This document shows, in pieces, positions 10,190-61,134 of a DNA stretch of 64,000 nucleotides. The notes beneath the pieces were generated by a model that did no database searches, was not told where the DNA came from, and worked only from the letters and a program-made list of their open reading frames with translations. Origin of the DNA: Patescibacteria group bacterium. GTDB taxonomy: Bacteria > Patescibacteriota > Minisyncoccia > Phycocordibacterales > Phycocordibacteraceae. How positions within the stretch are numbered: the first letter of the stretch is position 1; the number at the start of each line of letters is the position of its first letter. The position numbers and the translations under genes are program-made. The stretch covers positions 618,394 through 682,393 of the forward strand of contig JAIELV010000001.1 of NCBI GenBank assembly GCA_019752595.1. The letters run 5' to 3'.

Positions 10190-10207
10190 TACCCTTCAGG
10201 ATACAAC

Positions 10208-11582: not shown

Positions 11583-11611
11583 TTGACACAATCTCATGGC
11601 TCTAGTACACT
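11583..11611 (+). promoter_or_regulatory. Promoter of TrmB paralog 2 (TTGACA-N17-TACACT), near-leaderless
   Basis: TTGACA at 11583-11588 and TACACT at 11606-11611, with the ATG at 11619. Confidence 0.5.
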
Positions 11612-11618
11612 CTCAATC

Positions 11619-29495: not shown

Positions 29496-29767
29496 TGAGT
29501 GAACATAGATTTTTCTGGGCAGATGCTCAAAGACTTGGCGCGGAAGCGGATGCTCGAGAGAGCGTACGTCGTGACGGGCGAGCTGTGTGGACGGGGATGG
29601 GGATAGGTGCTCTCGCAGGAGCGTTTGTTGACACTATTGCCGCAGCAACTGGACGTGATACGTACCCAATAGGAATTACCCTCGGCGCTACAGCGGGGGC
29701 ACTGACTCCTGGAGCGTACTCTCGCGTTAAAACTTTCGTCCGCGGACGCTCTTCCAGAGCCGACTAG
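29496..29767 (+). CDS. Small glycine-zipper membrane protein (hypothetical)
   Basis: About 90 aa from the ATG at 29496, with GxxxG-rich helices. Confidence 0.3.
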
Positions 29768-42719: not shown

Positions 42720-44648
42720 ATGCTGCCTGAAAACTCATTGAACGACGCTCAAAAAAAGGCAGTTCTCCATAAAAAAGGGGCACTCCTTATTCTCGCGGGG
42801 GCGGGAGCAGGCAAAACGAGAGTTATCACCCACAGAATTGCGGAATTAATCCGAAGCGGGATAAACCCTGGGGCAATTCTTGCGGTTACTTTTACTAACA
42901 AAGCGGCGAGCGAGATGCGCTCTAGGGTTTTGAAGCTAATTTCCGAAGATTTATCCCTTTCGCCCTACGACACCCCAAAAACACTCCCCTATATAGGTAC
43001 GTTCCATGCGGTTTCTCTGGAAATTATTAAGACATTCCACGAAAAGGCAGGACTCCCGCGCCGATTCTCAATATTCGACCGCTCCGACTCTGTACGTGCA
43101 TTGAAAGAAGCGATCTCTGAAGCTGGTTTTGATCCGAAACAACTTGAGCCCCGAAGGGTACTTTCAATTATGGGGCGCCACAAAGGTAACGCGGTTGACC
43201 TTGATGCATTCCGTGAGCGCTACGTGCGTTCATACATAGATGAAGCGGTTGCAGAAGTGTGGGAGAGGTATGAAAAAATTCTTGCAAAAGAAAAAGCGCT
43301 TGATTTTGATGACATTCTTTTGCGTGCATACCACTTAGTGGCGCGAAATCCTGAAGTACGAGAGTATTTTGAGCGCGCGTGGCAGTACGTACATGTGGAC
43401 GAGTACCAAGACACAAACCGTGTGCAGTACGAACTCGTGCGCCTCTTGTCGAAAAAAAGCGGGAACATTGCAGCGGTGGGAGACATTGACCAAAATATTT
43501 ACAGCTGGCGAGGTGCTTCGATTGAATTCATTATGAATTTTGAACAGGATTTCCCCGACGCGGAAATTGTGGTCTTGGCAGAAAACTATCGCTCAACAAA
43601 AACAATACTCGCAGCGGCAAATGATGCCATCGAAAAAAATATTCAACGTAAAGAAAAAGAGTTGTACACAAAAAACGCTGATGGGGAGAAAATAACGGTT
43701 GCAGGTTTTTATGACGAAACAGAAGAAGCGCGCTATGTTGCAAAAGAAGCAAAGTATTTATCGAACTACGGAGTGAAGCATGAAAACATCGCGGTCTTGT
43801 ATCGTGCAAACTTTCAATCACGCATTTTGGAAGAGGCGTTCCTCAAAGAAAATGTTCCCTATCAAGTATTGGGCACACGATTTTTTGAACGCAAAGAAGT
43901 AAAAGACGCTGTTTCGTATATTAAGCTTGCACTAAATCCTGACTCGAGTGCGGATTTTGCGCGCGCCATCGGCACACCTTCTCGAGGCATAGGAAAAGTG
44001 ACACTCGTCAAAGTGGTAAACGGAAAAGAAGAAGAACTACCCGCATCAGCGCGCAAAAAAATTCAGGATTTCCGCACGCTTCTTGCTCGCATACAAAATA
44101 AAATTGAGACCGCACAAACTTCTGAAGCAATTAAATTTGCGCTCCATGAAAGCGGACTATGGAATTTATACGCCCATGGTACAAGCGAAGACACGGAACG
44201 TTTGGAAAACTTAAAGGAGCTCGTTACGGTTGCCACAAAATATGACCACCTCGCGGCTCCAGAAGGAATTGAAAAATTAATTGAAGAAGCAGCGCTCCAA
44301 TCAGACCAAGACGAGCTCAAAGAAAAAAAGGTGGGTGTGAAATTGATGACTATTCACGCAGCAAAGGGGCTTGAATTTGAACGTGTGTTCATTACGGGGC
44401 TTGAAGAAGGGCTGTTCCCGCATGAGCGCGACGAAGCCGAAGGTGTGGATCATGAAGAAGAGCGTAGATTGTTTTATGTCGCACTCACGCGTGCGGAGAA
44501 AAAAGTATATTTAACGCATGCGGCAACGCGCAGAATTTTTGGTACTCGTTCAATCAATACGCCGTCAGAGTTTGTAGTCGAGCTTGATCCTGCGTTGGTA
44601 GAAGTCGTACCATTTGTAGGAAACTACCATGAAGAAACAATTGACTAG
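42720..44648 (+). CDS. uvrD: ATP-dependent DNA helicase PcrA/UvrD
   Basis: 642 aa with the SF1 motifs GAGAGKT, DEYQDTN and the others. Confidence 0.93.
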   Translation: MLPENSLNDAQKKAVLHKKGALLILAGAGAGKTRVITHRIAELIRSGINPGAILAVTFTNKAASEMRSRVLKLISEDLSLSPYDTPKTLPYIGTFHAVSLEIIKTFHEKAGLPRRFSIFDRSDSVRALKEAISEAGFDPKQLEPRRVLSIMGRHKGNAVDLDAFRERYVRSYIDEAVAEVWERYEKILAKEKALDFDDILLRAYHLVARNPEVREYFERAWQYVHVDEYQDTNRVQYELVRLLSKKSGNIAAVGDIDQNIYSWRGASIEFIMNFEQDFPDAEIVVLAENYRSTKTILAAANDAIEKNIQRKEKELYTKNADGEKITVAGFYDETEEARYVAKEAKYLSNYGVKHENIAVLYRANFQSRILEEAFLKENVPYQVLGTRFFERKEVKDAVSYIKLALNPDSSADFARAIGTPSRGIGKVTLVKVVNGKEEELPASARKKIQDFRTLLARIQNKIETAQTSEAIKFALHESGLWNLYAHGTSEDTERLENLKELVTVATKYDHLAAPEGIEKLIEEAALQSDQDELKEKKVGVKLMTIHAAKGLEFERVFITGLEEGLFPHERDEAEGVDHEEERRLFYVALTRAEKKVYLTHAATRRIFGTRSINTPSEFVVELDPALVEVVPFVGNYHEETID

Positions 44649-45429
44649 AAAGCGTGGGGCAAAGTTGGGGCAGCACTTCCTCACGAATGCGGGGATTGCT
44701 CGCATCGTTGCCGAAAGTTCTGGCGCAGGGGTAGGGGTTCGCGTCTATGAAATCGGCCCTGGGAAAGGGATGCTGACGAAAGAGCTCTTAGCGCTCGGTG
44801 CAGTAGTGACCGCCGTGGAGAAAGACCCCGAGATGGCTGAAATCCTTTGTGCAGAGTTTGTAGACGAGATACGAAAGAAAAAACTCATTGTTATAGAAGG
44901 TGACGCGCGCGACTACACTCCCGATACGGTATTCCCAAAAGGTGAGTACATTATTGCTGCAAACATTCCGTACTACATTACGGGGGAATTAATCAGAACA
45001 GCGCTCACCTCAAAAAACCAACCGAAAAGTATGGCTCTTTTGATTCAGAAAGAAGTCGCTGAAAGAATTGCTCGTTCAAAAAAAGAATCCCTGCTCTCGC
45101 TTTCCGTAAAAGCGTATGGCACTCCGAAATACGTAAAGACAGTATCTGCGGGGAGTTTTAATCCGCCTCCTGCAGTTGATTCAGCAGTGCTTTCAATTGG
45201 AAATATTTCTCGCGCACATTTTGCTACTGTTTCTGAAGACGTTTTCTTTCGTGTTATCAAAGCGGGTTTTGCACAGAAACGAAAAACACTTGGTGGTAAT
45301 TTGAAAAAAACATTCGGCGTAAAGGCGCTCGAGGCACTTGCGTATGCAGGAATCCCCGAAAAAGAGCGCGCAGAAAATGTGCCGCTCGCTTTGTGGTTAC
45401 GCGTGGCTGAAAAAATGCGCCAAACTTAG
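44629..45429 (+). CDS. rsmA: 16S rRNA (adenine1518/1519-N6)-dimethyltransferase
   Basis: 266 aa with the KsgA SAM-binding motif VYEIGPGKG and NIPY. Confidence 0.9.
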   Translation: MKKQLTRKRGAKLGQHFLTNAGIARIVAESSGAGVGVRVYEIGPGKGMLTKELLALGAVVTAVEKDPEMAEILCAEFVDEIRKKKLIVIEGDARDYTPDTVFPKGEYIIAANIPYYITGELIRTALTSKNQPKSMALLIQKEVAERIARSKKESLLSLSVKAYGTPKYVKTVSAGSFNPPPAVDSAVLSIGNISRAHFATVSEDVFFRVIKAGFAQKRKTLGGNLKKTFGVKALEALAYAGIPEKERAENVPLALWLRVAEKMRQT

Positions 45430-46547: not shown

Positions 46548-47414
46548 ATGGAAATCCGCAAAGGATGGGAGGTTGTTATTGGTGCGGCAGTGTTTGCTGT
46601 TCTTGCAATCGGCATAGCACTTGGCACATACTTCTTTGAAGGTAGCAAGACTATTGCAGGGGTAGAAGCTGGCGGACCCAATGATGCGGACCGCGATGGA
46701 CTCACGACTGCTGAAGAGCTTGCCTGGGGAACTGACCCAAATAATCCAGACACTGACGGCGACGGCATCGCGGATGGGGCAGAGGTAGATCTTCTCGCAA
46801 GCCCTACAATTGCAGGCTCAAGCATTAACCCTTTCGAGCGGGCGACAGACGAGCGAGTAGCAACGAGTGAGATTGTAGCGTATGGAATAGCGCAAGCTGC
46901 AATCGAGGCCGAAGCGGGCGAAGAACAAAACGCAAGTTCAATAGTTAGTAACCTTGCGAGAAGTATAGACCTGCCTATACTTGCGAAAAACATTACCGCC
47001 AAAGATCTGCGCGTCACTGAAGGTATGTCGATGAAGCTGTACGCGGAAATTGTGTACGAAATACTTAGGGAATCAGCAACCATACGCGAATCAGAACTTT
47101 CACTTTTCAGAAAAGCTGTCGATACAGGAAATTATTCAGGAACCCTAGCTCTCAAGGACGCCGCGCGCACCTATAAAGAAATGGAAGCGGCGCTCATTGG
47201 TATGCAGGTGCCACCGTCAGTGGTGAATGAACATATTGAGCTCGTGAATTCTATCGGGACGCTTGCAAACATTGTAAGTTCAATGGCTTCGTGGAGCGGG
47301 GATTCTTTTGCGGGGATTTTGTATACAGAAGCATTTTTCGCAACCGAACCCCGTATTGAAGCGGCAATCGAAGCTTTGGGTGAGAAAGTTTCATTAACAG
47401 TAACAACACCATGA
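46548..47414 (+). CDS. Membrane-anchored protein with thrombospondin-type-3-like Ca-binding repeats
   Basis: 288 aa with an N-terminal TM helix and DxDxDG-type repeats ([19 protein letters not shown]). It is the first gene of the T4SS-like cluster. Confidence 0.55.
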
Positions 47415-49339
47415 TTAAAAAAACCCTTGCAACGCTCCTCTGTGTGATTCTGCTTGTCCCCGCAGGTGTATTTGCAGACACTCACACTTCGACGGCAACG
47501 AAAGAGACCGTCTCGGGAACTAAAGAGCGAGTAACAGCAGCTGGGATTGCAGGGAAAGTAAATTGTGGAACCAGAAGAGGTGGGGCATTCCAGCGAGCAC
47601 TTTCTGAATACGGCGACCGCTTGGGGGACGCTGCCCTTAGTGGGATTGCTGACGGCGTTTCAGGACGAGGCGCGGTAGGCGATGCGCTGGGAGATATTCT
47701 TCGTGGCGGGGCTATCGGCGACATCGCTCGTGGGCTTGGGGATGATGCTAGTGATTTTTTGGGTGACTACGCGGGCGGTTTCGTAAGTGATCAAATAAGT
47801 GGCGCGTGCGGAGATTCTTCTCTCGGTCAGCGTATTTGCGGAAGAATTGGAAGCGCTGTTGGCGACTTCGTTGGGGATCAAGTAGAAAGAATCGGAGGGC
47901 AACTGATTTCCCAGGGGCTCGAACAGTTAGGCATTTCCCAGCTTGGCGGTCTCATGGGCGGGTTTGGAGGATTGCTGGGCGGAGGAGAGATAAAAACAAA
48001 AGAAGATGCCCTTCGGAGAACTACGAAAGATACATTGAAGGAGACGTCGCTCGACAGGAGAAATAGTGACACCCAAATTGCTAAAGTCTGTGATGCAGAC
48101 CCTCTGACGCGCAGTCTCGCTGAAGGACAAGCTAAAGCTGCGCAGGCAAAAGTTGTCGAGGTGGCTGCAGAGCAACTTGAAGATCCTGCCGTCGCACGAG
48201 AAACAGCCAGAACATCGGCTAAAGAGGCATATATTGAGAGTATTGCCGACCCTGAAGAGAAGCGCCTTGCGACACGCCTTGCAACGCAGCAAGGAAGTCA
48301 GGGCACACGGGCAAGTTGTGGAACGGGAGTCTTTGAACAGTTATTCAATGATGCAAACTGCAATGTAAAAGCCGCGCAAGTATTTAGTAACATTGGAAAA
48401 GCGGCGGCACAGGGGGAGACATCATACGGCCAATTGAAGGAAGCAACGTACAGCCCACAGGGTATCTGCACTGACGGACCAAATAAAGGCACCCGCAACC
48501 AACCAGAACTTTGCCCGACTCCAGGTCACTATAGGATTACCCTTCCTGGGGATGACGTAAAAAATCTTTCGCAAAAAGCCCAGCAACGCATCTTTGATAT
48601 TGATGCCGATGCTATAGGTGAAGCGGCGGACGATTTAGTTGCGGATTTAATTGATGAAATATTCACCGTTGCCGAAGATGAACTCGAAAGCGGATTACAA
48701 AGACTGGTGTCCAGGCGAGTGTCAGGTTCAGAGGGGCGTTCTGACGGAAGTTACGCTGACCGTCTTGCAGGAGTACGATCATCAGTGGCAACCACAGACG
48801 AGGGAAGAGAATATCTGAGTTCAAATCTTGCAAATTCAATCGCGATTGAAAGCACGTTCCAATCATTTTCTAACGAAGCGATTACAGATGTTTCCGTAAT
48901 AATTGGTGTCTTTGAACAAATAAAATCCTGCTATGCAAATCTTGCGCTCACTTCAAATCCAAACATTACCCCAGAAGAGGCACGCATACGTTCAGAAAAT
49001 GCTTCGTCTACAGTGAACAGCATTCTTCGTCCTCAGCTAGTGTCATTCCAAGAAAATTTTGAAGCATCGCAAGGCGTCGTCAGTGATTTAGGCATTCTTC
49101 TTGATGAAGCACAAACTGCAACAAACGCCACGGAGCTAAACGCGACCGCTGAAAGCTATGATGGTCTGGTGGCAGTAGGGCTTTTACGTTCTGACTCCGA
49201 CTTACAATTCTTTGTCGATGACGTACGGCAGTACTTAGCATCACTTGACCTTGCTCGCGAAGATGCAAATGCGCAATTAGCACAGTGCCAGCAGTACAGC
49301 GCTCCACCTTTCCCGATACCGATACCTCCTACGAACTAA
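47411..49339 (+). CDS. Large secreted Gly/Asp-rich protein (hypothetical)
   Basis: 642 aa with a signal peptide and reiterated GDxxGD / GxxGD motifs. Confidence 0.55.
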
Positions 49340-49486
49340 TTCTTGATGGGGATAACACGCAAAAACAGCTTCGTTAGGGGCTGTTTTTGCGCACAGTGTT
49401 TTCCACTGAACATGCGTGGGGCCGTTGACAACTACTCGTAAAAGGGATACGGTGATATTGACAGAGGGATTCATAAGTTTTCTTAT

Positions 49487-49987
49487 TTGCACTCTATGGC
49501 AAACGTAACACACCACGAGGGATACCATGATGAACGCCCTCACGGGCACCCAATCCGAAATACAGTCCTGGGAGGAATGGGTTTTTTGGCGGCACTCACT
49601 GGGGGAATGCAAGCGGGTAGTTATATTGAAAGAAACGGAGGAGACGTGCCCACAGCGACCCGCAACTTTTTGGCGGGCGTTAATGACAGAGCCCGTGGCA
49701 ATGCGCGAGTAACAGTTGCCCCAACAGATGAAGCTGCACTACTAACCCCAGAGCCTTTACAAGTGGCCCGTAGAGATCCTCCTTCTGGTATACAAAGTGC
49801 TGGTCAACACAGAGGAGAACCTGCATACAGGATTACACGCACGGACGAACGTGGGAGAACAGTTGTTCTTGAGTTTACACGTAGTACCGACCCTGGATAT
49901 CAGCAAGGTGCTGACGAGCGCAGATTTAATCTGCCTGCAGACGCCGATATTTACTACTGGTACTATCCTCCGCGACAATCCGAATAA
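49487..49987 (+). CDS. Hypothetical protein
   Basis: 166 aa with one predicted TM region. A terminator follows at 49997-50024. Confidence 0.4.
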   Translation: MHSMANVTHHEGYHDERPHGHPIRNTVLGGMGFLAALTGGMQAGSYIERNGGDVPTATRNFLAGVNDRARGNARVTVAPTDEAALLTPEPLQVARRDPPSGIQSAGQHRGEPAYRITRTDERGRTVVLEFTRSTDPGYQQGADERRFNLPADADIYYWYYPPRQSE

Positions 49988-49996
49988 AACTTTTTT

Positions 49997-50024
49997 AACC
50001 CCGCACACAGTGACGGGGTTTTTC
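49997..50024 (+). terminator. Rho-independent terminator
   Basis: aaccccg-cacacagtga-cggggtt followed by ttt. Confidence 0.7.
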
Positions 50025-50114
50025 AATACTGGAACGTCGTGCATATCTAAAGAGTTATTCTCAAAAAAAACAAAAAACCTGCTCGACGGGTAACAACGGG
50101 GATATAATGCTCAC

Positions 50115-53100
50115 ATGGCAATGCCTGCTACTTCGTGGCGAAATTTTTTCGTTTTCCTTCTTAATGGGATTATCGGGCTTTCAATCGTTTTCTCGATAGC
50201 AATACCTTTCGCTGAAGCAGCTCCTGTAGCTGACACGTCACGTGCCCGTCCCGCGTTTGAGAGCATGAGCGGGATAAGCGTTTTAAACCCGGCGTATACA
50301 CTCCTTCGTGGTATCCCCGATGGTTGGCGTTGCGGTCAGTTCTCCCAAAGTGAATCAGGGTGTTACGACACTACCAACCCAACAGGTTCTTGGGTCTATT
50401 TAACTTGTAGAAGTGAAACTGTTACGCCGCGGGCGGATATGCCTGATATTTCATACACGACATCCGAGTGCAGCATGTGGCGCGGAAGCGGTTCACAAAG
50501 TATCGATCGGGAGACTCTTACACAATTAGATTCGCCAGGCTCAATGTCTTGGGAAGTGCCAACAATTAACAGTGATGGGACTGTAGAGGTGGAGGAAGGG
50601 AGGGCTGGCGCTGCTGATATTGTCGCGTCGATTTTTGCAGGGGCAGGGAACTGGATTAGCGGAATTTTGATTGAGGCGGTCGCGTTGATTATCTGGTTCT
50701 TCAGCGAGATTTTAGTGTGGATGTTAAACGGTCTTCTCGCACTTGTCGCTTTGTTTTTCGACTACGTCGTCAGTGAGTTTGTTATAGAAATGGGTAAATA
50801 CATCACCGCTGATTCTTCGGGGGCGGTGCGCGACGCGTGGATCATTATTCGCGACCTTGCAAACATCGGCATTATTGCAGGCATGGTGGCAACCGCAATC
50901 GGCACCATTGTGGGGGTCGGGAACTACAGCATCAGTAAAACGCTGGCGCGCCTTATTCTTGCCGCACTACTAGTTAACTTCAGCTATTTTTTCGCTGGAG
51001 CAATTATCGACTTCTCAAACTTCACTGCAAAAGCCGCGTACGAAGCGGTGATTAAAAAAGCGGGGTGCGAAACGGACAGTTCCTGTGGGATTGCAAGCAG
51101 GACTGGCAAATTAATCAATTTCACAGGAATAAATGAAAGGGTGCAGGAAATTGCCGTGGGGGACGACGAAATGACGGCGCAAGGCGCTGAGCGAAGCGGT
51201 GAAACACGAGTCGGGAGGGAAACCTACACAACCGACAACGCCTTCATTCCTTCCCGTCAAGCAACATTCAATGTGATGTTGATTATCTTCATTCTCGTCA
51301 CCATGTTTGTGTTCTTGTCGGCAATCAGCCTCTTGATTGCACGTTTTGTTGCGCTCATATTCCTCCTCATTACGTCACCTATAGGTATTGCTGGATGGTC
51401 GGTCCCTCTTTTGAAAAGCTATTCGGACGAGTGGTGGAAAGCCTTGTCGAGCCAAGCAATGTTCGCGCCAGTCTATTTCCTTCTTGCAGGAATTTCTTTG
51501 AACATGTTGGATGCGTTTGCGGGACAGCTGAACTCAGACCCCGTTGGTCTCTCCTTGACGAGCTTTGCTTTGACTCGTTCGCTTGAGGGGATGATCCCCA
51601 TCATTGCGGTGTTTACTGTTGCAATCGGTTTCATGTGGGCCGCGCTTTCAACCGCAAAGAAAATGGCAGCAGCGAGCGAGCGATTCAAAGAGCTGTACGA
51701 TGGCGTACAAAAATACCTCACCAAGCCTGGCACTTACTTAGGTGGTATGGTCCTTCGTGACACAGTTGGTCGCGCAGCGGACTACGCTCGACTAAAACTC
51801 CCCGGTTTCACTAACCGAGTTTCAGAATGGAGCAAAGGAAAAGGAATGACACAATCCATCGGCAGAGCTGTAGGAAAATACACCGGCCTTGGTGGGTTTG
51901 TAAAAATGGGAGGACGGGCACTCGACCGTGCAGCCCAAAAGGGGTTTGAGAAAATTGCTGACCAAAAATTCTTCGGGGCTGAAGGTTATAAAAAGCTATA
52001 CGACGAAAAAGAAAAACGTAAAATCGACTTGGTGGCAAAAAAAGAGGCGCTGGAAAACGAGGATGATTTCGACGGACGAAAGGCGAAAAGAGAGTTGTTG
52101 GAAAAAGAGCGCAAGTTGAAAGAGGAGCAAAAGAGAACGTCCGCTGCTATTGCAGAGCTTGAAAAAGTCAGCGGTCGCACACCCGCACAAGACGCAAGCC
52201 TTGCTTCGTTGAGGGAGAAAAGGGAAAAGGAGAGAGCGGAACTTGCTGAAATAAATAAATTTAAAGAGAACCGCAAACGACACCCAAAGGATGGTGTTAC
52301 AAAAGAACATGGCGAACTGGTTGAAAGCTCGAGGCTGAATCAGCTGCACGCAGATAGACAAAATGTTATTGGTCAGGGCAAACTTTCCCCCGAAGAGGTC
52401 AAGCGACTTGAGGAGAAGGAAAAAAACAAAACGCTAACCGCGGCGGAAGGCAATCGTCTCCGTCTACACAGAGAGCATGGGGGTGATACCGCTAAACTTG
52501 ACGCTGAAATCGCGGAGGAGGAAGAATTTGAACAACAAAAAGATAAATACGGATGGGGCGGCGCTCAGGGGAGAATCCGTCGCGGAAAGGCAAAACAAGA
52601 TCGCGCGGTAGCGGCAGGAGAACGCATAGAAAATTTCAACGAGAGGGCGCACGCATCGGGGCTGGAAAAAATTGCTGCTGCTGCTGCGAAAGCGGCATTT
52701 AGTGAGCCTGATTTCAGTGCATGGCAAGCTTTGGAGCGGCAAGCGGCAGCAAACCCAGGCGCTTTCAGCGAGACTGACCCTGGTAAAAAGGGGGCTTTGC
52801 AGGTACGCCTTGAAAAATTCCGAGAACAAGCGGAAAACGCGTCCCGCATGAGCCCCGGGGATGAGAAGTCTTACCTGGAAGCGCTACAAACCCCCCCGTC
52901 TGAACGCACTCCCGATCAGGTTGCACTCGTTACCGACCCCAACAGAAAGCTAACAAGTGCGGAAGCCAAAGCCTCGGCCTATTATCGTGAACAAAAAACC
53001 GCAATCACGGAGGATACGAACACAAAATTGGATGCGGACATTAGGAGGCGAACGGCTGGAACGCTTACGGATAAAAAGAGGCTCGCCGAGATGGAAGTTC

Positions 53101-54797
53101 TTGAAAACCGCAGACGAGTCGCAGGTGTTGTTTCAAATGATGGTAAAACCATTATAAAAAAGGGGGACGGCTTCAGCGAGGGTGCAGTAGAAAATTTTCA
53201 TGCATTTAGAATCAGACAAGAATCGCGTAATTCGGCGGTGCAAAGAAAGTTGCAAGAAAAATTTAACGATGAAACTGGCCAGGTTGAATTCGAACTTGAA
53301 GATGATTACGGATACAAATACAGACTCGAGACGGGTGATGCGACACTGCAATTGCGTAACGCAATGGGCGATGCACGCACACTCGTCGGAAAGCTGGGTG
53401 TCGACTACATCAAGGGAGAATACCGTAAAGACCCGAAGAGTATTCTCAAGTACGCAACGGCCCTGAACGACGAAGACTGGGCAAAAATAGCCTCAGACCA
53501 TAGCATTAACGAAGAGATACGGAATGAAATGCAAGTAACCAGAATAAGACGATTCACCGACGGTTTTATTAAGCTCCAACAGGACATTGTTGACGGTAAA
53601 GTTGCGTGGGGCAGCGATGAATTTAATCGCCGCAAAAACGACCTGTTTAACCAGCAGACCAAATACATCCCGAATAGCGAGATGCTCGCAGCGCTCCAAA
53701 CAAACGCGGTCATCGGCGAACTTCATAATAAAAAGACCGGTGCTACGATGCATGTTCGTATTAAAGATCTGAACACAGACACTGGAGAAGAGGGGGTCGG
53801 GAACTTGCGCAGGCTATTCTGGCACAGTACATCTTCAACGATGTTTGCGGACGCGAAGAAAACAAACGTCTTCGGACGTGAACTCAGCGCTGAAATGGCT
53901 CGCGATAAACGCGGCGGAGAGGACGGCACTGACCGAATGCGAGACATTGATCATATGATGTACGACATGATGGGTCTCAGTGACGACAAAAACTACATGC
54001 AACAGACCGCCGGCAAGGTTCAAATGTATGCTAAGGCTCGCGCCGACAAAGCAACAAAAAACATACTCGTAGAAGCCGAGAATAAAATTAACGCGTACAA
54101 TGATGGAGAAAGTACGCAAACCACAAACGACTACATTGCAACGCAGCGCGCACGGCGCCTAGCGCAACTGAATGTGGATGCACAAGCAGGCAGGGGGATA
54201 TTCCAAGACGTGCTACAAACTGCGGTAGCCACTAACAATTTAAAAAGCGTCAGAGCTTCGATCGCACAGAAGTTAAACATCCCCGCCGCCGACATCCCAG
54301 AGCAAGATGTAATCTCTTACGCAAAACTTGAAGCTGTTCGTAAGGTGAAAGCGGAAGTGATGAGTGATCCGCGTTCCGACGAGCAAATAATATCGGAAAT
54401 GGGGCTAGACGAAGGGCAGAAATTAGTTGACCAGAGACTCTTCTTTGAGATGCAAGAGGAGAACAAAATTAATGCGAGAAACCGAGCAAAAGGATGGACT
54501 GAAGATGAAGCAGCAGGAGCGTGGAATGAGAGAAGCATGCACTCGCCCATCATCGCTGAAACCATTCAGCAATCCCAAATTCCTGCACTGCTGTCTGGTA
54601 AAGACCCTGTGGATGCCGAGAGGTTTTGGGAGAGTTACTATTTGACGAGAGGCTCTGAAGAAATTACCGCGGCTCGCAATAGCCAGGCGATACAATCCGT
54701 GATCGTATACCCTACAAAATCGCAATTGCGTGCTATTAACATCAGACGTCTTGCTAATAATCAAGACATTTTGGTCGGCCTCCCCACCAGTGATTAA
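50115..54797 (+). CDS. Giant VirB6/TrbL-like polytopic membrane protein with a ~1000-aa charged coiled-coil extension
   Basis: 1560 aa. The N-terminal ~550 aa has a signal/TM helix plus at least 6 hydrophobic helices in a VirB6/TrbL-like arrangement. The rest is a Glu/Lys/Arg-rich predicted coiled coil and low-complexity sequence. Confidence 0.55.
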   Translation: MAMPATSWRNFFVFLLNGIIGLSIVFSIAIPFAEAAPVADTSRARPAFESMSGISVLNPAYTLLRGIPDGWRCGQFSQSESGCYDTTNPTGSWVYLTCRSETVTPRADMPDISYTTSECSMWRGSGSQSIDRETLTQLDSPGSMSWEVPTINSDGTVEVEEGRAGAADIVASIFAGAGNWISGILIEAVALIIWFFSEILVWMLNGLLALVALFFDYVVSEFVIEMGKYITADSSGAVRDAWIIIRDLANIGIIAGMVATAIGTIVGVGNYSISKTLARLILAALLVNFSYFFAGAIIDFSNFTAKAAYEAVIKKAGCETDSSCGIASRTGKLINFTGINERVQEIAVGDDEMTAQGAERSGETRVGRETYTTDNAFIPSRQATFNVMLIIFILVTMFVFLSAISLLIARFVALIFLLITSPIGIAGWSVPLLKSYSDEWWKALSSQAMFAPVYFLLAGISLNMLDAFAGQLNSDPVGLSLTSFALTRSLEGMIPIIAVFTVAIGFMWAALSTAKKMAAASERFKELYDGVQKYLTKPGTYLGGMVLRDTVGRAADYARLKLPGFTNRVSEWSKGKGMTQSIGRAVGKYTGLGGFVKMGGRALDRAAQKGFEKIADQKFFGAEGYKKLYDEKEKRKIDLVAKKEALENEDDFDGRKAKRELLEKERKLKEEQKRTSAAIAELEKVSGRTPAQDASLASLREKREKERAELAEINKFKENRKRHPKDGVTKEHGELVESSRLNQLHADRQNVIGQGKLSPEEVKRLEEKEKNKTLTAAEGNRLRLHREHGGDTAKLDAEIAEEEEFEQQKDKYGWGGAQGRIRRGKAKQDRAVAAGERIENFNERAHASGLEKIAAAAAKAAFSEPDFSAWQALERQAAANPGAFSETDPGKKGALQVRLEKFREQAENASRMSPGDEKSYLEALQTPPSERTPDQVALVTDPNRKLTSAEAKASAYYREQKTAITEDTNTKLDADIRRRTAGTLTDKKRLAEMEVLENRRRVAGVVSNDGKTIIKKGDGFSEGAVENFHAFRIRQESRNSAVQRKLQEKFNDETGQVEFELEDDYGYKYRLETGDATLQLRNAMGDARTLVGKLGVDYIKGEYRKDPKSILKYATALNDEDWAKIASDHSINEEIRNEMQVTRIRRFTDGFIKLQQDIVDGKVAWGSDEFNRRKNDLFNQQTKYIPNSEMLAALQTNAVIGELHNKKTGATMHVRIKDLNTDTGEEGVGNLRRLFWHSTSSTMFADAKKTNVFGRELSAEMARDKRGGEDGTDRMRDIDHMMYDMMGLSDDKNYMQQTAGKVQMYAKARADKATKNILVEAENKINAYNDGESTQTTNDYIATQRARRLAQLNVDAQAGRGIFQDVLQTAVATNNLKSVRASIAQKLNIPAADIPEQDVISYAKLEAVRKVKAEVMSDPRSDEQIISEMGLDEGQKLVDQRLFFEMQEENKINARNRAKGWTEDEAAGAWNERSMHSPIIAETIQQSQIPALLSGKDPVDAERFWESYYLTRGSEEITAARNSQAIQSVIVYPTKSQLRAINIRRLANNQDILVGLPTSD

Positions 54798-54814: not shown

Positions 54815-55804
54815 ATGAAAACCCCCACCAAAGAAGAGCAGTACGGAGCGCTTATAAAGGCCCCAAAACCTTTGAGGGATTTTATAGTGTCACCAACACT
54901 TCTACAGATTTACGGTGGAATAGAGAGGAAGCATAAATTTACACCTGCACAAATGCTTACTGTCTCTCAATTAGCAAATCTTACTCTTCTGGGATTTGAA
55001 AGCGAGACCGCTCTCGAAACAAACATCCACCAAATATTACCCGATTTGTCTCACACTACAACGGTTGAACTCGTTGCTGATATACATACTCGTGTTTTCA
55101 AAGAGGCGCAACGGCGGGTTGAAGAAAGTATCTTAGAACCGAGTGCCTACAGCAAAGCACTCGAGGAATCCGCAGCCCCAGCTGACCCTGAGTATACGAG
55201 AATAAACAACCTTGACGAAGATACCCCTGAATGGAGGGAGATGATAGGCAAGAAAATCGAAGAACAAAAGGCCGAACGAATGGCATTCCAAAAACAATAC
55301 GAAGAAAAAGTGCGAGAGCAAGCATCCGCGAGCGAAAACGCGGATGTCGAAGGGGTGGACATTGCTGATCTTGACGAAGATAATTGGCTTAAATCAAGGT
55401 ATGAACTAGAGTTAGAAGCGATTGAATCAGCGTTTCAAGAAAAAGTTGCTGTCCTTGAAAATGGAGAGGGGGCCCCGGCCGCAAGAACCATCTCTGCAGT
55501 TCAAGGGGGGCGGGATGGCGCTTACGAAAAGCCTGATAAATTGACTTTAAATGTTGTACAAATAACCCAGCCCGTCCCTGCCGAAGCCCCTGCGTCCTCA
55601 GTGTCTATTGCGCAACAAAAACTCAGCGTTCCGACAGCAGAGCAGAGCTCAACATCACAAGTTGAATCTGTCCTTGGACAACCAGGTATTTCCTCAGTCG
55701 AATTGCCAGTACCGTTGGACTCCACGACACAGAAAGCGAATGTAACTCCAATTCAGAAAAGACCCGAAAAAAGCAACGACCCGTACCGGGAATCCGTCGA
55801 CTAG
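54815..55804 (+). CDS. Acidic hypothetical protein, paralogous N-domain with the next gene
   Basis: 329 aa. Its N-terminal ~100 aa aligns with ORF 55823..56164. Confidence 0.45.
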   Translation: MKTPTKEEQYGALIKAPKPLRDFIVSPTLLQIYGGIERKHKFTPAQMLTVSQLANLTLLGFESETALETNIHQILPDLSHTTTVELVADIHTRVFKEAQRRVEESILEPSAYSKALEESAAPADPEYTRINNLDEDTPEWREMIGKKIEEQKAERMAFQKQYEEKVREQASASENADVEGVDIADLDEDNWLKSRYELELEAIESAFQEKVAVLENGEGAPAARTISAVQGGRDGAYEKPDKLTLNVVQITQPVPAEAPASSVSIAQQKLSVPTAEQSSTSQVESVLGQPGISSVELPVPLDSTTQKANVTPIQKRPEKSNDPYRESVD

Positions 55805-55822: not shown

Positions 55823-56164
55823 ATGTTTTCATTTACACCCGAAGAAATAGCGGGCGCGAAATCAAGCGCCCCGAAAGTAATCACTGATTTTCTAGCATCG
55901 GCTGATTTCAAAAAAGAAATCTTCGCAATCAGTAAACAGCACACACTGAATTTACAGGGGATTGCAGAACTAAGCGACATTGTCACTTATATGCTCCTTG
56001 GGCTCATCCCGCAACATGAATTTGCAGGATACATACATTCTTCCCATATGCACCTCAGTCCTGAGGGCCAACGCATGCTTTTAAGCGAAGTTGATGCGAA
56101 GATTTTTAGCGAAATAAAAAGAAGACTCCAATCAGATACCACACCGAGAACTGAACAAGAGTAG
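55823..56164 (+). CDS. Hypothetical protein, paralogous to the N-domain of the preceding gene
   Basis: 113 aa. Confidence 0.45.
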   Translation: MFSFTPEEIAGAKSSAPKVITDFLASADFKKEIFAISKQHTLNLQGIAELSDIVTYMLLGLIPQHEFAGYIHSSHMHLSPEGQRMLLSEVDAKIFSEIKRRLQSDTTPRTEQE

Positions 56165-56229
56165 TGCTGGGCTTTTGCATCTCATACACCCTCGCCTACC
56201 GCAGTGAATTTTTAGTTTACAATTACAGT

Positions 56230-56661
56230 ATGCAATTTCAGGTTCCTCAGTTTATTGAGGTTGAAGATAAAATATTCGGCCCATTAACGGCAACCCAGTT
56301 TATTTACCTCGTTGGTGGAGGGGGGTTTGCCGTTGCAATGTGGCTCTTGTTACCACTATGGGCTGCGGTACTTATTGGAGGGCCCGTAGCAGGGCTCGGG
56401 GTGGCTCTTGCGTTTTACAAGGTAAACGACCGCCCGTTCATTCAAGTTATCGAAGCGGCGTTTCAGTATATTTTGAAGTCAAAGCTCTATATTTGGGAAC
56501 ATAAAAATGCCGAACCCTCGCCAGAGCAGGCGGCGGAACGCGACAACGACCCAGCAAAATTTGTGCCCGCAGCAACGGGTGACCGACTGAAAGATTTGGC
56601 ATGGAGTTTGGATGTGCAGGAAAAAACTCAGCGAGAAGGAATAGAACTCCCAAGAATATAA
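56230..56661 (+). CDS. PrgI/VirB3-like small membrane protein
   Basis: From MQFQVPQFIEVEDKIFGPLTATQFIYLVGGGG... there are two TM helices and a PrgI-type LT..Q motif. It lies immediately upstream of VirB4. Confidence 0.55.
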   Translation: MQFQVPQFIEVEDKIFGPLTATQFIYLVGGGGFAVAMWLLLPLWAAVLIGGPVAGLGVALAFYKVNDRPFIQVIEAAFQYILKSKLYIWEHKNAEPSPEQAAERDNDPAKFVPAATGDRLKDLAWSLDVQEKTQREGIELPRI

Positions 56662-56717: not shown

Positions 56718-57383
56718 ATGCCCCCCCAGCAAAAAAAGAAGAGCGCTGCCGCACAAGAATTTGTACCCGTAAAAGAGGTGCGTGGTGGCGTCATGATAAT
56801 GAAAGACGGCACACTCGTTGGGGCGCTACTGGCGTCTTCGGTTAACTTTGCCCTCAAATCAGAAGACGAACAGACAGCAATCATTGCACAGTTTCAAAAC
56901 TTCCTTAACTCCCTCGATTTTTCAGTTCAGCTTTTCATGCAGTCGCGAAAGCTCGACATACGCCCATACGTAGCCCTTCTTGATGAGCGCCTGAAAGCAC
57001 AAACAGAGGAGCTCATGAAAATACAAGTCCGAGAATACATAGAATTCGTGAAAACGTTTGTCGAGCAGGCAACCATCATGTCGAAGCGTTTTTTTGTAAT
57101 TGTTCCTTATTCGCCACCAGCACTAAACATACAGAAGGAGCTCCAGAGTAGGGTTTTTGGAAGCCCCGATGTTGAAATCGGAGCTAAGAAGGGGAGTTTT
57201 GAGGAACACCGCACACAACTTGAGCAACGTATGTCCATCGTCGCAGGGGGGCTTGCAGGGTGCGGGGTGCGCACCGCGCAACTAGGCACCGAAGAAATAA
57301 TTGAACTTCTCTACAAGGAATTTAACCCAGGGGAACTTGAAAAACCAATAACCCTGCAACAAAACGCGATACCGCAAAAATAA
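56718..57383 (+). CDS. VirB4-like ATPase, N-terminal domain as a separate ORF
   Basis: 221 aa. The segment VPVKEVRGGVMIMKDGTLVGALLASSVNFALKSEDEQTAIIAQFQNFLNSLDFSVQLF matches the conserved N-terminal region of Gram-positive VirB4 (PrgJ/TcpF). Its stop is 2 nt before the next ATG. Confidence 0.6.
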   Translation: MPPQQKKKSAAAQEFVPVKEVRGGVMIMKDGTLVGALLASSVNFALKSEDEQTAIIAQFQNFLNSLDFSVQLFMQSRKLDIRPYVALLDERLKAQTEELMKIQVREYIEFVKTFVEQATIMSKRFFVIVPYSPPALNIQKELQSRVFGSPDVEIGAKKGSFEEHRTQLEQRMSIVAGGLAGCGVRTAQLGTEEIIELLYKEFNPGELEKPITLQQNAIPQK

Positions 57384-57385
57384 CT

Positions 57386-59197
57386 ATGGATTTATTTGAC
57401 TTAATTTCAGGGAAAAAGCCAGAAGAGAAGCAGAAACTCACTCCGTTTTTGCCGAAAGACATTTACGAATCTGCGAAACTTGATTTCGCAGACATCATTG
57501 CGCCTTCAGCGCTCCAAATTACCCCGCGTGAAATGAACTTGGGAGACAAACTCGTGCGCACGTTCTACGTTATTTCGTATCCACGCTATCTTGCAGGAAG
57601 TTGGTTTTCGCCAATTATCAATCTCGACAAAGTGTTCGACATATCAGTATTTATTCACCCGATAGATACTGCCCAAATGCTGAGGCAATTCCAAAAGAGA
57701 GTTGCGGAGGTACAAAGTCAGATTATGAGCCGACAGGAGAAAGGCTTGGTGCGTGATCCAGTGTTGGATACCGCATACCAAGACATTGAAGGGCTGCGCG
57801 ACCAACTACAGCAAGCGCAGGAGCGCATTTTCGACGTGGGGCTTTACATTTCTATATATGGCGATAACCAGGAAGACTTAAACAAAACTGAATCAGAGGT
57901 TCGCTCGATGCTTGACTCAAAGCTCGTGTACGTAAAGCCAGCTCTTTTTCAACAAGAACAGGCATTTATGAGCATTGCACCTTTGGGGAAAGACGTGCTT
58001 TCGATTAACTCGAAGATGAATTCTTCTCCTCTCTCTTCTATTTTCCCATTCGTGTCTTTCGACCTCACCTCTGATAGGGGGATTCTCTACGGCATCAACC
58101 GCCACAATTCCTCTCTTATTTTGTTTGACCGATTTTCTCTTGAAAACTACAACTCCGTGGTATTCGCAAAGTCGGGCTCGGGTAAGTCATACGCAACCAA
58201 ACTCGAAATACTACGAACGCTAATGTTCGACACAGAAGTTATTGTTATCGACCCTGAAAGCGAATACGAATATCTGGCGAACGCCGTCGGCGGGAGATTT
58301 TTCAATATCTCACTCTCATCAGACAACCACATCAATCCGTTTGACCTCCCAACCCCACGTGAAGACGAGTCTCCATCTGACGTCTTGCGTTCAAACATCA
58401 TTAACCTTGTCGGGCTCTTCCGCATCATGCTCGGGAGCCTCACTCCTGAGGAAGACGCGATCGTAGACCGCGCGATTACTGAAACGTACGCCCTCAAAGA
58501 CATCACGGGCGAAACTGATTTCAAAAGCATGGAACCGCCGCTACTTTCTGACTTTGAGCTTGTGCTCGCGGGCATGGAGGGGTCGGAATCACTGGTTCAA
58601 CGCCTGAGTAAATACACCAAAGGTACGTGGGCGGGGTTTATTAACCGACCCACAAACGTCGACATCAACAAGAAGTTCGTTGCGTTCTCAGTTCGAAACA
58701 TGGAAGACGAGTTGAAGCCCGTGGCGATGTACATTGTGACGCACTTCATTTGGAATGCCGTCCGAAAAGAGCTCAAAAAGCGTCTGCTGGTTATTGACGA
58801 GGCGTGGTGGATGATGAAATCCGAAGATACTGCGTCATTCTTATATTCAATGGCAAAACGAGGTCGTAAATACTACCTGGGGCTTGCAACTATTACCCAA
58901 GACGTCGAGGACTTCTTGAAGAGCCCCTACGGTGGGCCGATGCTCACCAACTCATCAATTCAGATACTTTTAAAGCAGTCGCCGACCTCAATTGATGCCG
59001 TGCAAAAGACATTCAACCTAACTGACGAAGAAAAATATCTTCTACTAGAATCTGACGTCGGGGAGGGGATTTTCTTTGCAGGATTGAAGCACGTTTCCAT
59101 AAAAATTATCGCCTCATACACTGAAGACCAGATTATTACTTCGGACCCCTCGCAACTGTTGGCAATCGCGCGCGAACGAAAAGCGGCCCAAGAATAA
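57386..59197 (+). CDS. VirB4/TrbE/CagE-like conjugative ATPase, C-terminal NTPase domain
   Basis: 603 aa with Walker A FAKSGSGKSY, Walker B LLVIDEAWW and ATITQDVEDF. Confidence 0.8.
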   Translation: MDLFDLISGKKPEEKQKLTPFLPKDIYESAKLDFADIIAPSALQITPREMNLGDKLVRTFYVISYPRYLAGSWFSPIINLDKVFDISVFIHPIDTAQMLRQFQKRVAEVQSQIMSRQEKGLVRDPVLDTAYQDIEGLRDQLQQAQERIFDVGLYISIYGDNQEDLNKTESEVRSMLDSKLVYVKPALFQQEQAFMSIAPLGKDVLSINSKMNSSPLSSIFPFVSFDLTSDRGILYGINRHNSSLILFDRFSLENYNSVVFAKSGSGKSYATKLEILRTLMFDTEVIVIDPESEYEYLANAVGGRFFNISLSSDNHINPFDLPTPREDESPSDVLRSNIINLVGLFRIMLGSLTPEEDAIVDRAITETYALKDITGETDFKSMEPPLLSDFELVLAGMEGSESLVQRLSKYTKGTWAGFINRPTNVDINKKFVAFSVRNMEDELKPVAMYIVTHFIWNAVRKELKKRLLVIDEAWWMMKSEDTASFLYSMAKRGRKYYLGLATITQDVEDFLKSPYGGPMLTNSSIQILLKQSPTSIDAVQKTFNLTDEEKYLLLESDVGEGIFFAGLKHVSIKIIASYTEDQIITSDPSQLLAIARERKAAQE

Positions 59198-59266
59198 CGG
59201 CAGGCTTGCTTGCTGGATAAAAGTGCAGGTGTCCGCACGTGGGCTATATACTGTACAGAGAGCTCT

Positions 59267-60229
59267 ATGGCGAAAATTTTCGCATTACTTCTACTTTGCA
59301 TCGTGCCCGCTTCAGCGTTTGGTGCGGTGGTGCCTACAATTTCTTTGCGCCCCGTGATTAGCGCAAACCCAAGTTACCAAACTCCAAACGCTTCAGTGGT
59401 CCTTACTGCAATTGCCAAGGTCCCAAAAGGTGAAGTGACGTACACGTGGACCGTGGACGACGTGGAAATTGCCCGAGGTATCGATATAGACAAAATTACT
59501 CTCACTGCGGGGGCAGGGGGCAGTACAAAAGTAGTGCGTGTATTTTTGGTAGACGCGCAGGGGGCTGAGGGTGAAGCGCTGTACCTCATTCGCCCAGGCA
59601 GTGTGGATTTGGTGTGGGAAGGGAACACGTATATACCACCCTTGTACGCTGGGAAGGCCCTCCCCACGGGAGATTCGATGATACAAGTCCAAGCGCTCCC
59701 GCATATAGAAATAGGAAGTGGTCGCGTACCAAAAAATTCTCTTGTGTACACGTGGGAAGTTGAGGGACAGAAGCTTGAGGCGGCATCGGGCTTTGGGAAA
59801 TCCGTACTTCGCATTAAACCAACAAAACTTAAATACCAGACACGAGTTAGTGTTACTGCCTCAACTCCCGATGGCACTATAGGCGCGCGGGCATCGGCAA
59901 CCATACCACTCTATAATCCTGTCGTAGTGATTTATGAAGAAAAGCCCCTTTCGGGAACGTGGTACACACAAGCAACGCCAGCTATGACGACACTCTCTGC
60001 GGACGAAGTAGCATTTCGAGCGATCCCGTATTTTGTTCTTGACCCGAAGAGTGTTTCTTTCGTCTGGACTCTTTCAGGAGAACCGTTTGAAATTGATACC
60101 CCTGACCGTTCAATCGCAGTGTTCAGAAAAACGGGCGAGGGGGCAGGTGAATACCCTGTCGGTGTTACGATAGAAAAGCGCGACAGCCTCTTTGAGCGTG
60201 CTTCTTCAAGATTTGTTCTTTCATTCTAA
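59267..60229 (+). CDS. Secreted beta-rich (Ig-like repeat) protein (hypothetical)
   Basis: The signal peptide is MAKIFALLLLCIVPASAFG, and the internal halves are similar. Confidence 0.5.
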   Translation: MAKIFALLLLCIVPASAFGAVVPTISLRPVISANPSYQTPNASVVLTAIAKVPKGEVTYTWTVDDVEIARGIDIDKITLTAGAGGSTKVVRVFLVDAQGAEGEALYLIRPGSVDLVWEGNTYIPPLYAGKALPTGDSMIQVQALPHIEIGSGRVPKNSLVYTWEVEGQKLEAASGFGKSVLRIKPTKLKYQTRVSVTASTPDGTIGARASATIPLYNPVVVIYEEKPLSGTWYTQATPAMTTLSADEVAFRAIPYFVLDPKSVSFVWTLSGEPFEIDTPDRSIAVFRKTGEGAGEYPVGVTIEKRDSLFERASSRFVLSF

Positions 60230-60244
60230 TCTTTTTTCTTTCTC

Positions 60245-61132
60245 ATGAAAAAATTTAAAGCTCTCTGTGTCATCTCCTTGGTTGTTCTTACCTTTGTAAC
60301 TTCATTTGCTTTTGTTGAGGCATCACAATTTCAACCTATCGTCCCCATTCCTGGCGTAACTTCAGAGCAAGGAATTACGTTGACCTTCGCACAGTACGTA
60401 AATCAGATATTCAAGCTGGTGATTTCACTAAGCGCAATACTTGCGGTACTCGTAATTATTTACGGAGGATTTGAGTACATGACTTCCTCCGCAGGCATCA
60501 GCAAGAAAAACGGTATGGAGCGTATCCAGGGCGCAGTGACGGGGCTTTTCCTTCTTTTGTCTGTCACACTCATCTTGCAAATCATCAACCCGTGTATTTT
60601 GGAAATAACGGTTCTTTCGGGGACAACGTCCGAGCAATGCTCGCGCCAAGTGGCCGCAACCCAGGCGACAGGACAAGGTGTGGGCCAGGGGACGGGCCAA
60701 GGCACGGGACAGGGAACAGGACAAGGAGCGGGTCAGACTACTACGGAGCGCCCTTGTCAGGTTTCGGCCAGAGCGAGTACCTGCCCAAGTGGGGCCCCCA
60801 CCGTCGCAAGATGCGCGGCGGGCACTGTATACACTGATGTCCCTGCAACGGGGGGCTGTGTGGCCCCTGCAACAGGAATCGTGCATATCTGTGAAAATGC
60901 TTCTTGTGTGAGAGCCCCTGACCGAGACGGGGCGTGGCGTGTGGTAGCTTCTGAGACAACGCAGTGCCAGTCGAGTGGGGACCCAATACTCCCTGTGGCG
61001 CACTGTTGCACTATTCAGAACCCAACGTGGGCTCAATTTCTTGAAGAAACCTGCTCGGTGCGCACAGGAACCACCCAGTGTAGTGGGACCAAACCAAACA
61101 CGGTGTATATCTGTGGGGGACAATCAAGATAA
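60245..61132 (+). CDS. Candidate VirB2/TrbC-like pilin with a Cys-rich C-terminal domain
   Basis: 295 aa with a signal peptide and two hydrophobic helices (IFKLVISLSAILAVLVIIYGG and GAVTGLFLLLSVTLILQII). A (GQGT)n tandem repeat at 60665-60730 precedes a domain with at least 10 Cys. Confidence 0.45.
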   Translation: MKKFKALCVISLVVLTFVTSFAFVEASQFQPIVPIPGVTSEQGITLTFAQYVNQIFKLVISLSAILAVLVIIYGGFEYMTSSAGISKKNGMERIQGAVTGLFLLLSVTLILQIINPCILEITVLSGTTSEQCSRQVAATQATGQGVGQGTGQGTGQGTGQGAGQTTTERPCQVSARASTCPSGAPTVARCAAGTVYTDVPATGGCVAPATGIVHICENASCVRAPDRDGAWRVVASETTQCQSSGDPILPVAHCCTIQNPTWAQFLEETCSVRTGTTQCSGTKPNTVYICGGQSR

Positions 61133-61134
61133 GT

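Follow-up and report, generated by a model that had tools for sequence, protein, structure and literature searches.

The stretch analyzed here (64,000 nucleotides, hereafter the window) belongs to contig JAIELV010000001.1 of a Patescibacteria group bacterium (GCA_019752595.1, positions 618,394 to 682,393), and the gene under study is a single open reading frame (ORF) of 1560 amino acids (aa), which almost certainly encodes the VirB6 channel subunit of a chromosomal Patescibacteria type IV secretion system (T4SS) in a Saccharibacteria-like bacterium. An identical protein is deposited in GenBank under the label "hypothetical protein" (MBY0539565.1, on an 831,433-bp contig). Because of this entry, and because full-length collinear relatives of 1589 aa (locus L002) and 1424 aa (locus L004) are encoded on independent contigs or assemblies, the long reading frame is real and not an assembly, fusion, or frameshift artifact. 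Both GTDB genomes containing relatives are Candidatus Saccharibacteria metagenome-assembled genomes. The VirB6 assignment and the T4SS itself are already known; what is new is an orphan, well-folded, lineage-restricted module carried on a long tether. The gene and the parts of its product are as follows.

50115..54797, + strand: whole gene, extended VirB6-like protein, 1560 aa (single ORF and exact database match)
50115..50216, + strand: aa 1-34, signal peptide or N-terminal anchor, helix 6-28, possible cleavage site between AEA and AP (hydropathy peak 12-30, model helix)
50217..50648, + strand: aa 35-178, variable N-domain, probably external, four Cys (73, 83, 98, 119) (predicted local distance difference test score, pLDDT, <50)
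50649..51674, + strand: aa 179-520, VirB6/TrbL core of long hydrophobic helices
51054..51242, + strand: aa 314-376, inserted loop, predicted external, two Cys (318, 324), beta-hairpin 363-372 (model, exported-like composition)
51675..51974, + strand: aa 521-620, basic Gly/Ala/Lys/Arg-rich segment past the last hydrophobic helix (net charge +10 in aa 501-600)
51975..52604, + strand: aa 621-830, polyampholyte Glu/Lys/Arg-rich spacer without heptad periodicity (charge profile, heptad test)
52605..53291, + strand: aa 831-1059, second low-complexity, Ala/Glu/Pro-rich linker, poorly conserved
53292..54164, + strand: aa 1060-1350, N-lobe of the orphan globular module (family alignment; pLDDT 80-95)
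54165..54476, + strand: aa 1351-1454, variable insert separating the lobes (gap-rich columns 290-500 of the module alignment)
54477..54794, + strand: aa 1455-1560, C-lobe of the module (family alignment; pLDDT ~90-95)

VirB6 core and its gene neighborhood

As the first-pass annotation of this DNA had claimed, the hydropathy profile reveals an N-terminal signal-like helix (6-28) and six further hydrophobic peaks (183-201, 251-269, 280-298, 390-408, 450-468, and 493-511), whereas no hydrophobic segment is found beyond aa 511 and 1046 residues trail the last hydrophobic helix. In the model, the core helices span residues 179-224, 236-266, 273-313, 377-419, 431-474, and 493-518, so the protein is polytopic, with at least five hydrophobic helices and a sizeable external loop. 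The extreme N-terminus is K/R-rich throughout the family, and homology of the N-domain (aa 35-178) is undetectable in loci L001, L002, and L004.

Several lines of evidence identify the core. Among the aligned relatives, 14 of 41 match Pfam TrbL (PF04610), with scores of 34.7 (P0046), 32.3 (P0102), and 28.7 bits (P0007) against a gathering score of 25.9 and coverage of profile positions ~15-213 of 215; these TrbL-matching relatives align with the window protein at E-values of 1e-20 to 1e-82. The best natural structural matches of the AlphaFold model, retrieved by two methods (350,542 and 48,164 chains), are TrwI/VirB6 and DotA, and the core resembles experimentally solved subunits of the VirB6 family. 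Together with the gene neighborhood described below, the relatives' Pfam matches and the fold uphold the VirB6/TrbL character assigned earlier to the N-terminal part. Some results weigh against this identification: the window protein itself has no Pfam TrbL match at E<0.01, either at full length or as aa 1-600, and no NCBIfam match; the family profile retrieves no VirB6 chain from the PDB sequences; and an hhalign comparison with TrwI as a single sequence gave a weak alignment (E 0.016). When the protein and pieces of its tail were scanned against Pfam and NCBIfam, just spurious sub-threshold matches, such as DUF4501, were returned. The plan of the protein matches that of solved VirB6 and DotA proteins, with a signal peptide, a variable Cys-containing N-domain, and a membrane helix pair (236-266 and 273-313), followed by an external Cys loop with a beta-hairpin, three long hydrophobic helices, and a basic Gly/Ala-rich C-tail.

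The neighboring genes with predicted or possible roles in the T4SS are listed below.

46548-47414, + strand: TSP3-repeat exported protein (Pfam TSP3_bac)
47411-49339, + strand: p642, Cys-rich exported protein, 642 aa (signal peptide, 11 Cys, Gly/Asp-rich repeats)
54815-55804, + strand: p329, 329 aa, downstream of VirB6
55823-56164, + strand: p113, 113 aa, following p329 directly downstream of VirB6
56164..56661, + strand: PrgI/VirB3-like protein (Pfam PF12666, E 1.1e-9)
56718..57383, + strand: TrsD-family protein, 221 aa, resembling the VirB4 N-terminal domain (NCBIfam NF041427, E 1e-6)
57386..59197, + strand: VirB4 ATPase, CD1110 (monoderm) family (NCBIfam NF045971, E 2.1e-111, 373.5 bits versus a cut-off of 325)
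60245..61132, + strand: VirB2-like T4SS pilin-domain protein, 295 aa (Pfam PF18895, E 3.7e-7)

PrgI, TrsD, and VirB4 are encoded 1.4-2.6 kb downstream of VirB6 on the same strand, and this synteny is kept in L001, L002, and L004. The cluster shows the features of a Patescibacteria T4SS, namely a monoderm-type VirB4, TrsD, a PrgI/VirB3 protein, and a VirB2-like pilin, encoded on the chromosome near ksgA and the origin-proximal genes yidC and jag; dnaA is not in the window. Chromosomal Patescibacteria T4SSs with this gene set were described by Quinonero-Coronel et al. (2025; PMC12102498), and their components are essential to Ca. Southlakia epibionticum for its epibiotic growth (PMC12102498, citing Wang et al. 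2023; PMC12857230). TrsD is a hallmark and the most abundant component of these clusters, still without an assigned function (PMC12102498); an alternative reading of ORF 56718-57383 as a split VirB4 N-terminus was dropped in favor of TrsD (NF041427; PMC12102498). No type IV coupling protein (T4CP) or relaxase domain was detected in any scanned ORF of the window; T4CP genes rarely lie near virB4 in this phylum, and the T4CP homolog is non-essential in Southlakia (PMC12102498). The window is ordinary chromosome, containing genes for NusA, trigger factor, RNase Y, GuaA, PurB, the CCA-adding enzyme, a Xer recombinase, PNPase, PcrA, KsgA, YidC, Jag, ClpP, and a pyrophosphatase, as well as four tRNAs.

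Since an N-terminal domain of ~100 aa is common to both (cross-matching tblastn), p329 and p113 are paralogs; they have no Pfam, NCBIfam, or PHROG match and no transmembrane (TM) segments. Both lie directly downstream of VirB6 in L001, L003, and L004, while in L002, where the contig ends, just the beginning of the 329-aa ORF is retained. These proteins could be T4SS accessory proteins or substrates. The TSP3 protein (calcium-binding type) and p642 are found upstream of VirB6 at all four loci compared (L001, L002, and L004 being syntenic with the window); neither matches a known T4SS family, and they may be cell-envelope parts of the T4SS. The giant gene is preceded by a gap of 775 nt (49340-50114), the equivalent spacer measuring ~1.3 kb in L001 and 28 nt in L004. 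No Rfam family matches the gap, its promoter- and terminator-like sites are no more than expected from shuffled sequence, and its sole sizeable ORF (49487-49987, TTG start) was rejected, as it is not conserved in L001 or L002.

Three same-strand genes follow VirB4 (59210-62319), encoding a 339-aa protein with a signal-like N-terminus, the 295-aa protein, residues 50-114 of which match PF18895 and which is long for a pilin, and a membrane-anchored 394-aa protein without family matches. A PilB-like T2SSE/MshEN ATPase, the assembly motor of type IV pili, is encoded at 1048-2784; besides the T4SS, type IV pili are the machinery that has been reported as important for Saccharibacteria epibiosis. 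Four TrmB-family helix-turn-helix regulators are encoded within 27 kb (7674-8447, 11583-12407, 29764-30480, and 33976-34740), a high number for a ~0.83-Mb genome, and two of them flank an ATP-binding cassette transporter operon (8533-11191). Two further ORFs, of 528 aa (37493-39079, with a 5' end that overlaps the PNPase gene at its 3' end) and 285 aa (30592-31449), have no Pfam match at E<=0.001.

Tail anatomy and conservation across loci

The tail very probably consists of four parts, none of them a coiled coil, and in this lineage the C-tail is lengthened by ~940 residues, comprising the spacer, the disordered linker, and the two-lobed module. The basic segment (aa 521-620) is conserved in the family, with a mean of 7.1 K+R versus 2.6 D+E and 36-56% identity in L001 and L004; its TrwI equivalent, tail 278-342, carries 13 K/R and one acidic residue. 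The spacer (aa 621-830) aligns with the tails, ~300 residues long in most members, of ordinary family proteins of 650-800 aa. The linker (aa 831-1059) has a pLDDT of ~28 at aa 991-1030, is 24% identical in L004, and finds no match in L001 or L002. Neither self-BLAST of the tail, which returned just the identity match, nor Tandem Repeats Finder applied to the DNA, which returned just a 15-nt TGC run, revealed internal repeats. Long tails are common in the family, 84 of 93 members having at least 300 aa past the last hydrophobic helix, and the combination of a hydrophobic core with a large C-proximal hydrophilic domain places the window protein among the extended VirB6 proteins in the sense of Alvarez-Martinez and Christie (as quoted in PMC12857230).

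The distal ~480 residues (~1080-1550) are modeled as a compact, multi-helical globule with two small beta-hairpins (pLDDT 81.7, predicted template modeling score 0.76). The module is mainly alpha-helical and two-lobed and has invariant Arg/Lys residues, among them R1070, R1081, K1265, R1276, and R1545. Motifs of the N-lobe are Y.ERLD, REYRK.PKS, SIR.DI[RK]N.M, PYNYQ.K, KR...D..RD, and GTV.YDA, and this lobe also occurs in relatives of ~1000 aa (P0003, P0009, P0012, P0013, and P0015); motifs of the C-lobe are GKN..E...ILNKR, WEN.L..GD, and WP...R.REIN..R. All occurrences of the module, in ~10 cluster representatives, are fusions to VirB6, and it has no recognizable homolog or fold analog, searches of its profile against PDB and PHROGs being empty. 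A word-indexed search with aa 831-1560 returned nothing, whereas relatives surfaced in an exhaustive search. An apparently free-standing module (P0104, 599 aa) was rejected, as its contig contains an N-run (scaffold gap) and the partial ORF upstream is VirB6 linker; P0097 and P0107 are truncated gene calls, because both start inside the module. A census of fused domains based on a trimmed core profile yielded no further informative fusions.

Identities were compared between the window proteins and loci L001, L002, and L004. The housekeeping proteins KsgA and PcrA (window 42720-45429), which serve as background, are 69-80% identical, and the loci are therefore not close strains; for the same reason, we dropped a reading of the contrast between VirB4 (96%) and VirB6 (46%) as hypervariability between near-identical strains. 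VirB4 is 88-96% identical, TrsD (74-83%) and PrgI (73-81%) are near the background, the VirB6 core is 50-68% and the module 22-28% identical, and p329 and p113 are 34-47% identical. In the L001 VirB6 protein (1056 aa), an unrelated C-terminus of ~290 residues replaces the module. Judged by sequence identity, VirB4 is unusually conserved, and the VirB6 periphery, p642, TSP3, p329, and p113 are unusually labile and modular; the T4SS motor VirB4 is either more conserved than core genes or was recently exchanged.

Side of the membrane and possible role of the module

The tail is probably cytoplasmic. Among 41 family members, K+R density is high in the extreme N-terminus, at 267-279 and 433-449, and beyond 512, and low in the N-domain and at 225-235, 314-376, and 470-492, an alternation expected if the N-domain lies outside and the tail inside. 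All six Cys residues reside in the two predicted external regions (~210 residues), whereas the 1046-residue tail has none; the exported neighbor p642 has 11. A composition classifier trained on window proteins (leave-one-out assignment correct for 19 of 20 cytoplasmic and 7 of 7 exported proteins) scored the N-domain (-0.098) and the loop (-0.048) as exported-like and all four parts of the tail (+0.063, +0.158, +0.034, and +0.044) as cytoplasmic-like. According to the spacing in the TrwI alignment, the TrwI TM pair (residues 30-82; PMC11294453) maps onto helices 236-266 and 273-313; three long helices follow this pair, so that an up-down bundle would end at its membrane- or cytoplasm-proximal end. 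In line with this, reporter fusions place the C-terminus of Agrobacterium and Brucella VirB6 and of ComB6 in the cytoplasm (cited in PMC7648143).

Other evidence runs counter to this topology. In R388 and Dot/Icm just two helices are truly membrane-inserted (PMC9259494, PMC12501162, PMC12857230), which makes the counting of TM helices unreliable. The distant member P0054 (848 aa), which has the same core motifs as the window protein, carries a poly-Gly linker followed by a He_PIG/BACON immunoglobulin (Ig)-like domain at the end of its tail (residues 768-845, E 1.3e-8), and a VirB6 C-tail that bears a domain of the surface type is at odds with a cytoplasmic location. The extensions of Anaplasma VirB6-3 and VirB6-4 are accessible to trypsin on intact cells, and the C-domain of F TraG works outside the cytoplasm (PMC7648143). 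Finally, the rate of evolution of the N-domain and tail is far above that of housekeeping proteins, a frequent trait of exposed proteins.

In solved systems, VirB6 forms a pentameric platform or protochannel above the VirB4 ATPase. Taken together, a T4SS VirB6 with a cytoplasmic, flexibly tethered binding module seems to us, on balance, the best overall explanation. A pentamer of VirB6 would lie at the center, above the VirB4/TrsD motor, and the tail, which we infer to leave the core on the cytoplasmic side, would be a canonical basic tail lengthened to a flexible tether of ~540 residues (aa 521-1059) bearing a folded binding module, five per machine. Tethered beside the VirB4/TrsD motor, the modules might dock a substrate, partner, or regulator at the cytoplasmic mouth. 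This docking role is proposed only tentatively and is more doubtful than the topology itself; the lack of a recognizable homolog or fold analog of the module speaks against it.

The strongest alternative, unlikely in our view, places the tail outside the cytoplasm, with five flexible arms per pentamer carrying a variable head module through the envelope to the host bacterium, where it would act as an adhesin or host-range determinant; alternatively, the T4SS would deliver the C-terminal module after its cleavage, as has been suggested for the extended VirB6 proteins of Rickettsiales and for F TraG. Such an arrangement would fit P0054, whose core motifs and last hydrophobic helix are equivalent and whose surface-type Ig-like tip is strongly exported-like by the composition classifier (-0.158), the location of most hydrophobic helices of solved VirB6/DotA outside the bilayer, the surface exposure of the Anaplasma VirB6-3/VirB6-4 extensions, and the action of F and SXT TraG in the mating junction. 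It is also consistent with a module that is only 22-28% identical, versus 69-80% for KsgA/PcrA, with the unrelated C-terminus of L001, and with the similarly fast evolution of the exported neighbors p642 and TSP3. However, the cytoplasmic, TM-less p329 and p113 evolve equally fast (34-47%), so a high rate of change is not confined to exported parts. The basic flank past the last helix is kept throughout the family, and K/R residues follow an alternating pattern; all tail segments are cytoplasmic-like in composition; the 1046 tail residues contain no Cys, versus 6 in ~210 exported residues and 11 in p642; and no extra hydrophobic segment past aa 511 could flip the parity. The fuller form of this alternative, in which each T4SS would carry five external arms of ~1000 residues with swappable, fast-evolving heads that recognize or are injected into the host bacterium, is less probable still; if true, host recognition would be built physically into the channel subunit of the sole secretion system known as essential for Saccharibacteria epibiosis.

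Far weaker is the view, taken in the first-pass annotation, that the tail of ~1000 residues is a long, charged coiled-coil rod or fiber encoded by ~3 kb of Glu/Lys/Arg-rich, heptad-like sequence, which we consider highly improbable. The peptides quoted in its favor are present (EKERKLKEEQKR at aa 663-674 and REKREKERAELAEINKFKENRKR at aa 700-722), and Glu/Lys/Arg runs such as EKERKLKEEQKR superficially resemble a coiled coil or single alpha-helix; weak SMC-like coiled-coil profile matches were also obtained in PDB (E 0.02-0.03), but only when homolog tails were included, and they are judged to be noise from these tails. The described composition does not extend over the tail, as a charge of 44-48% is confined to aa ~600-800, with 24-37% elsewhere, and only ~210 residues are extremely charged. 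Heptad periodicity is likewise missing: on an a/d-periodicity score calibrated on GCN4 and tropomyosin (means 0.66/0.71, 83-85% of windows >=0.6), aa 621-830 reach a mean of 0.22 with 0% of windows >=0.6, far under both references and under shuffles of the same segment (0.27), and 3% of windows in the whole tail reach 0.6. Same-register length did not discriminate (28 for both tropomyosin and the tail) and was not used. The longest run free of Gly and Pro between aa 600 and 1080 is 39 residues, and residues ~1080-1550 are modeled as a compact multi-helical domain. A test for an ER/K single alpha-helix found no 40-residue window with 12 i/i+4 opposite-charge pairs, a result that depends on an arbitrary cut-off and has no positive control or shuffle. 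A coiled-coil fiber is therefore unsupported, given the missing periodicity, the frequent breaks, and the folded globular distal half; of the two functions suggested earlier for the tail, extracellular fiber or cytoplasmic scaffold, the evidence leans toward the cytoplasmic location and against the fiber. Extremely improbable is an origin of the N-terminal membrane domain in an unrelated transporter or membrane family, its T4SS context being coincidental, since relatives pass the Pfam TrbL threshold, VirB6-family proteins are the best natural structural matches by two methods, and synteny with PrgI, TrsD, and VirB4 is kept at four independent loci; the relatives' TrbL matches, the fold, and the synteny thus point to VirB6, not to the unrelated transporter that the first-pass annotation had named as its refutation.

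The Patescibacteria T4SS is the sole T4SS reported to be essential for the survival of its owner, with a substrate and mode of action that are not known (PMC12857230, PMC12102498), and what the added domains of extended VirB6 proteins do is "not yet known" (PMC12857230). The locus studied here offers a concrete example, in which a highly conserved motor (VirB4) is accompanied by a VirB6 with an N-domain and a module that vary or are substituted from one related genome to another. If the module on the tail, which we favor as cytoplasmic, docks substrates in a cluster that encodes no coupling protein, or if it contacts the host, it would provide a handle on the transported cargo and on host specificity; if it is a mere lineage-specific decoration, the gain would be one of annotation only, from "hypothetical protein" to extended VirB6.

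Comparison with known systems

Extended VirB6 proteins had been described in the first-pass annotation as known mainly from Rickettsiales. These bacteria do have them, but the statement is incomplete, since extensions are likewise present in F and SXT TraG, in DotA (1048 aa), and in the VirB6 proteins of monoderm MPF_FA systems, which have 700-900 aa (PMC12857230, PMC7648143, PMC12501162). With the Rickettsiales proteins (Anaplasma VirB6-3/VirB6-4, Rickettsia RvhB6; PMC7648143, PMC2653234), the window protein shares a VirB6 core, a hydrophilic extension of very large size C-terminal to it, and an origin in a bacterium that is obligately associated with a host and has a reduced genome. In contrast to the Anaplasma extensions, which are tandem repeats accessible to trypsin at the surface (PMC7648143), the window tail is repeat-free, ends in a unique folded module, and, on indirect evidence, is more likely cytoplasmic, and no sequence homology is seen outside the core. 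F/SXT TraG and monoderm MPF_FA VirB6 proteins (e.g., Tn916 Orf15; PMC12857230) similarly have at least five hydrophobic helices and a large C-proximal hydrophilic domain, and the MPF_FA versions also contain unstructured regions (PMC12857230). Unlike F TraG, the window protein has no TraG-type or other C-terminal domain that matches Pfam; the TraG C-domain acts in mating-pair stabilization and entry exclusion (PMC7648143), and no TraS-like partner is evident at the window locus.

Among the structurally characterized proteins, TrwI/VirB6 of R388 (PDB 7O3V, 8RT9) has 342 aa, lacks the signal peptide, N-domain, and Cys loop, has nothing beyond the basic tail, and is only marginally similar in sequence; no VirB5 partner is recognizable in the window cluster. 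DotA of the Legionella Dot/Icm system (PDB 9NGY; PMC12501162) has an inserted disulfide-rich domain with a beta-hairpin, which is comparable to loop 314-376; however, the extra mass of DotA is a periplasmic domain inside the core, whereas that of the window protein is appended C-terminally and its loop has only ~60 aa.

The closest comparison is with the Patescibacteria T4SS VirB6 proteins (PMC12102498), which come from the same phylum and from clusters with the same VirB4/TrsD/PrgI/VirB6/pilin content and no relaxase nearby. A term search of that study found neither "extension" nor "coiled", and the sole instance of "C-terminal" refers to VirB1. Typical members have 550-700 aa or up to ~1050 aa, whereas the window protein, at 1560 aa, carries an extra two-lobed module of ~500 residues that is common to just ~10 cluster representatives.

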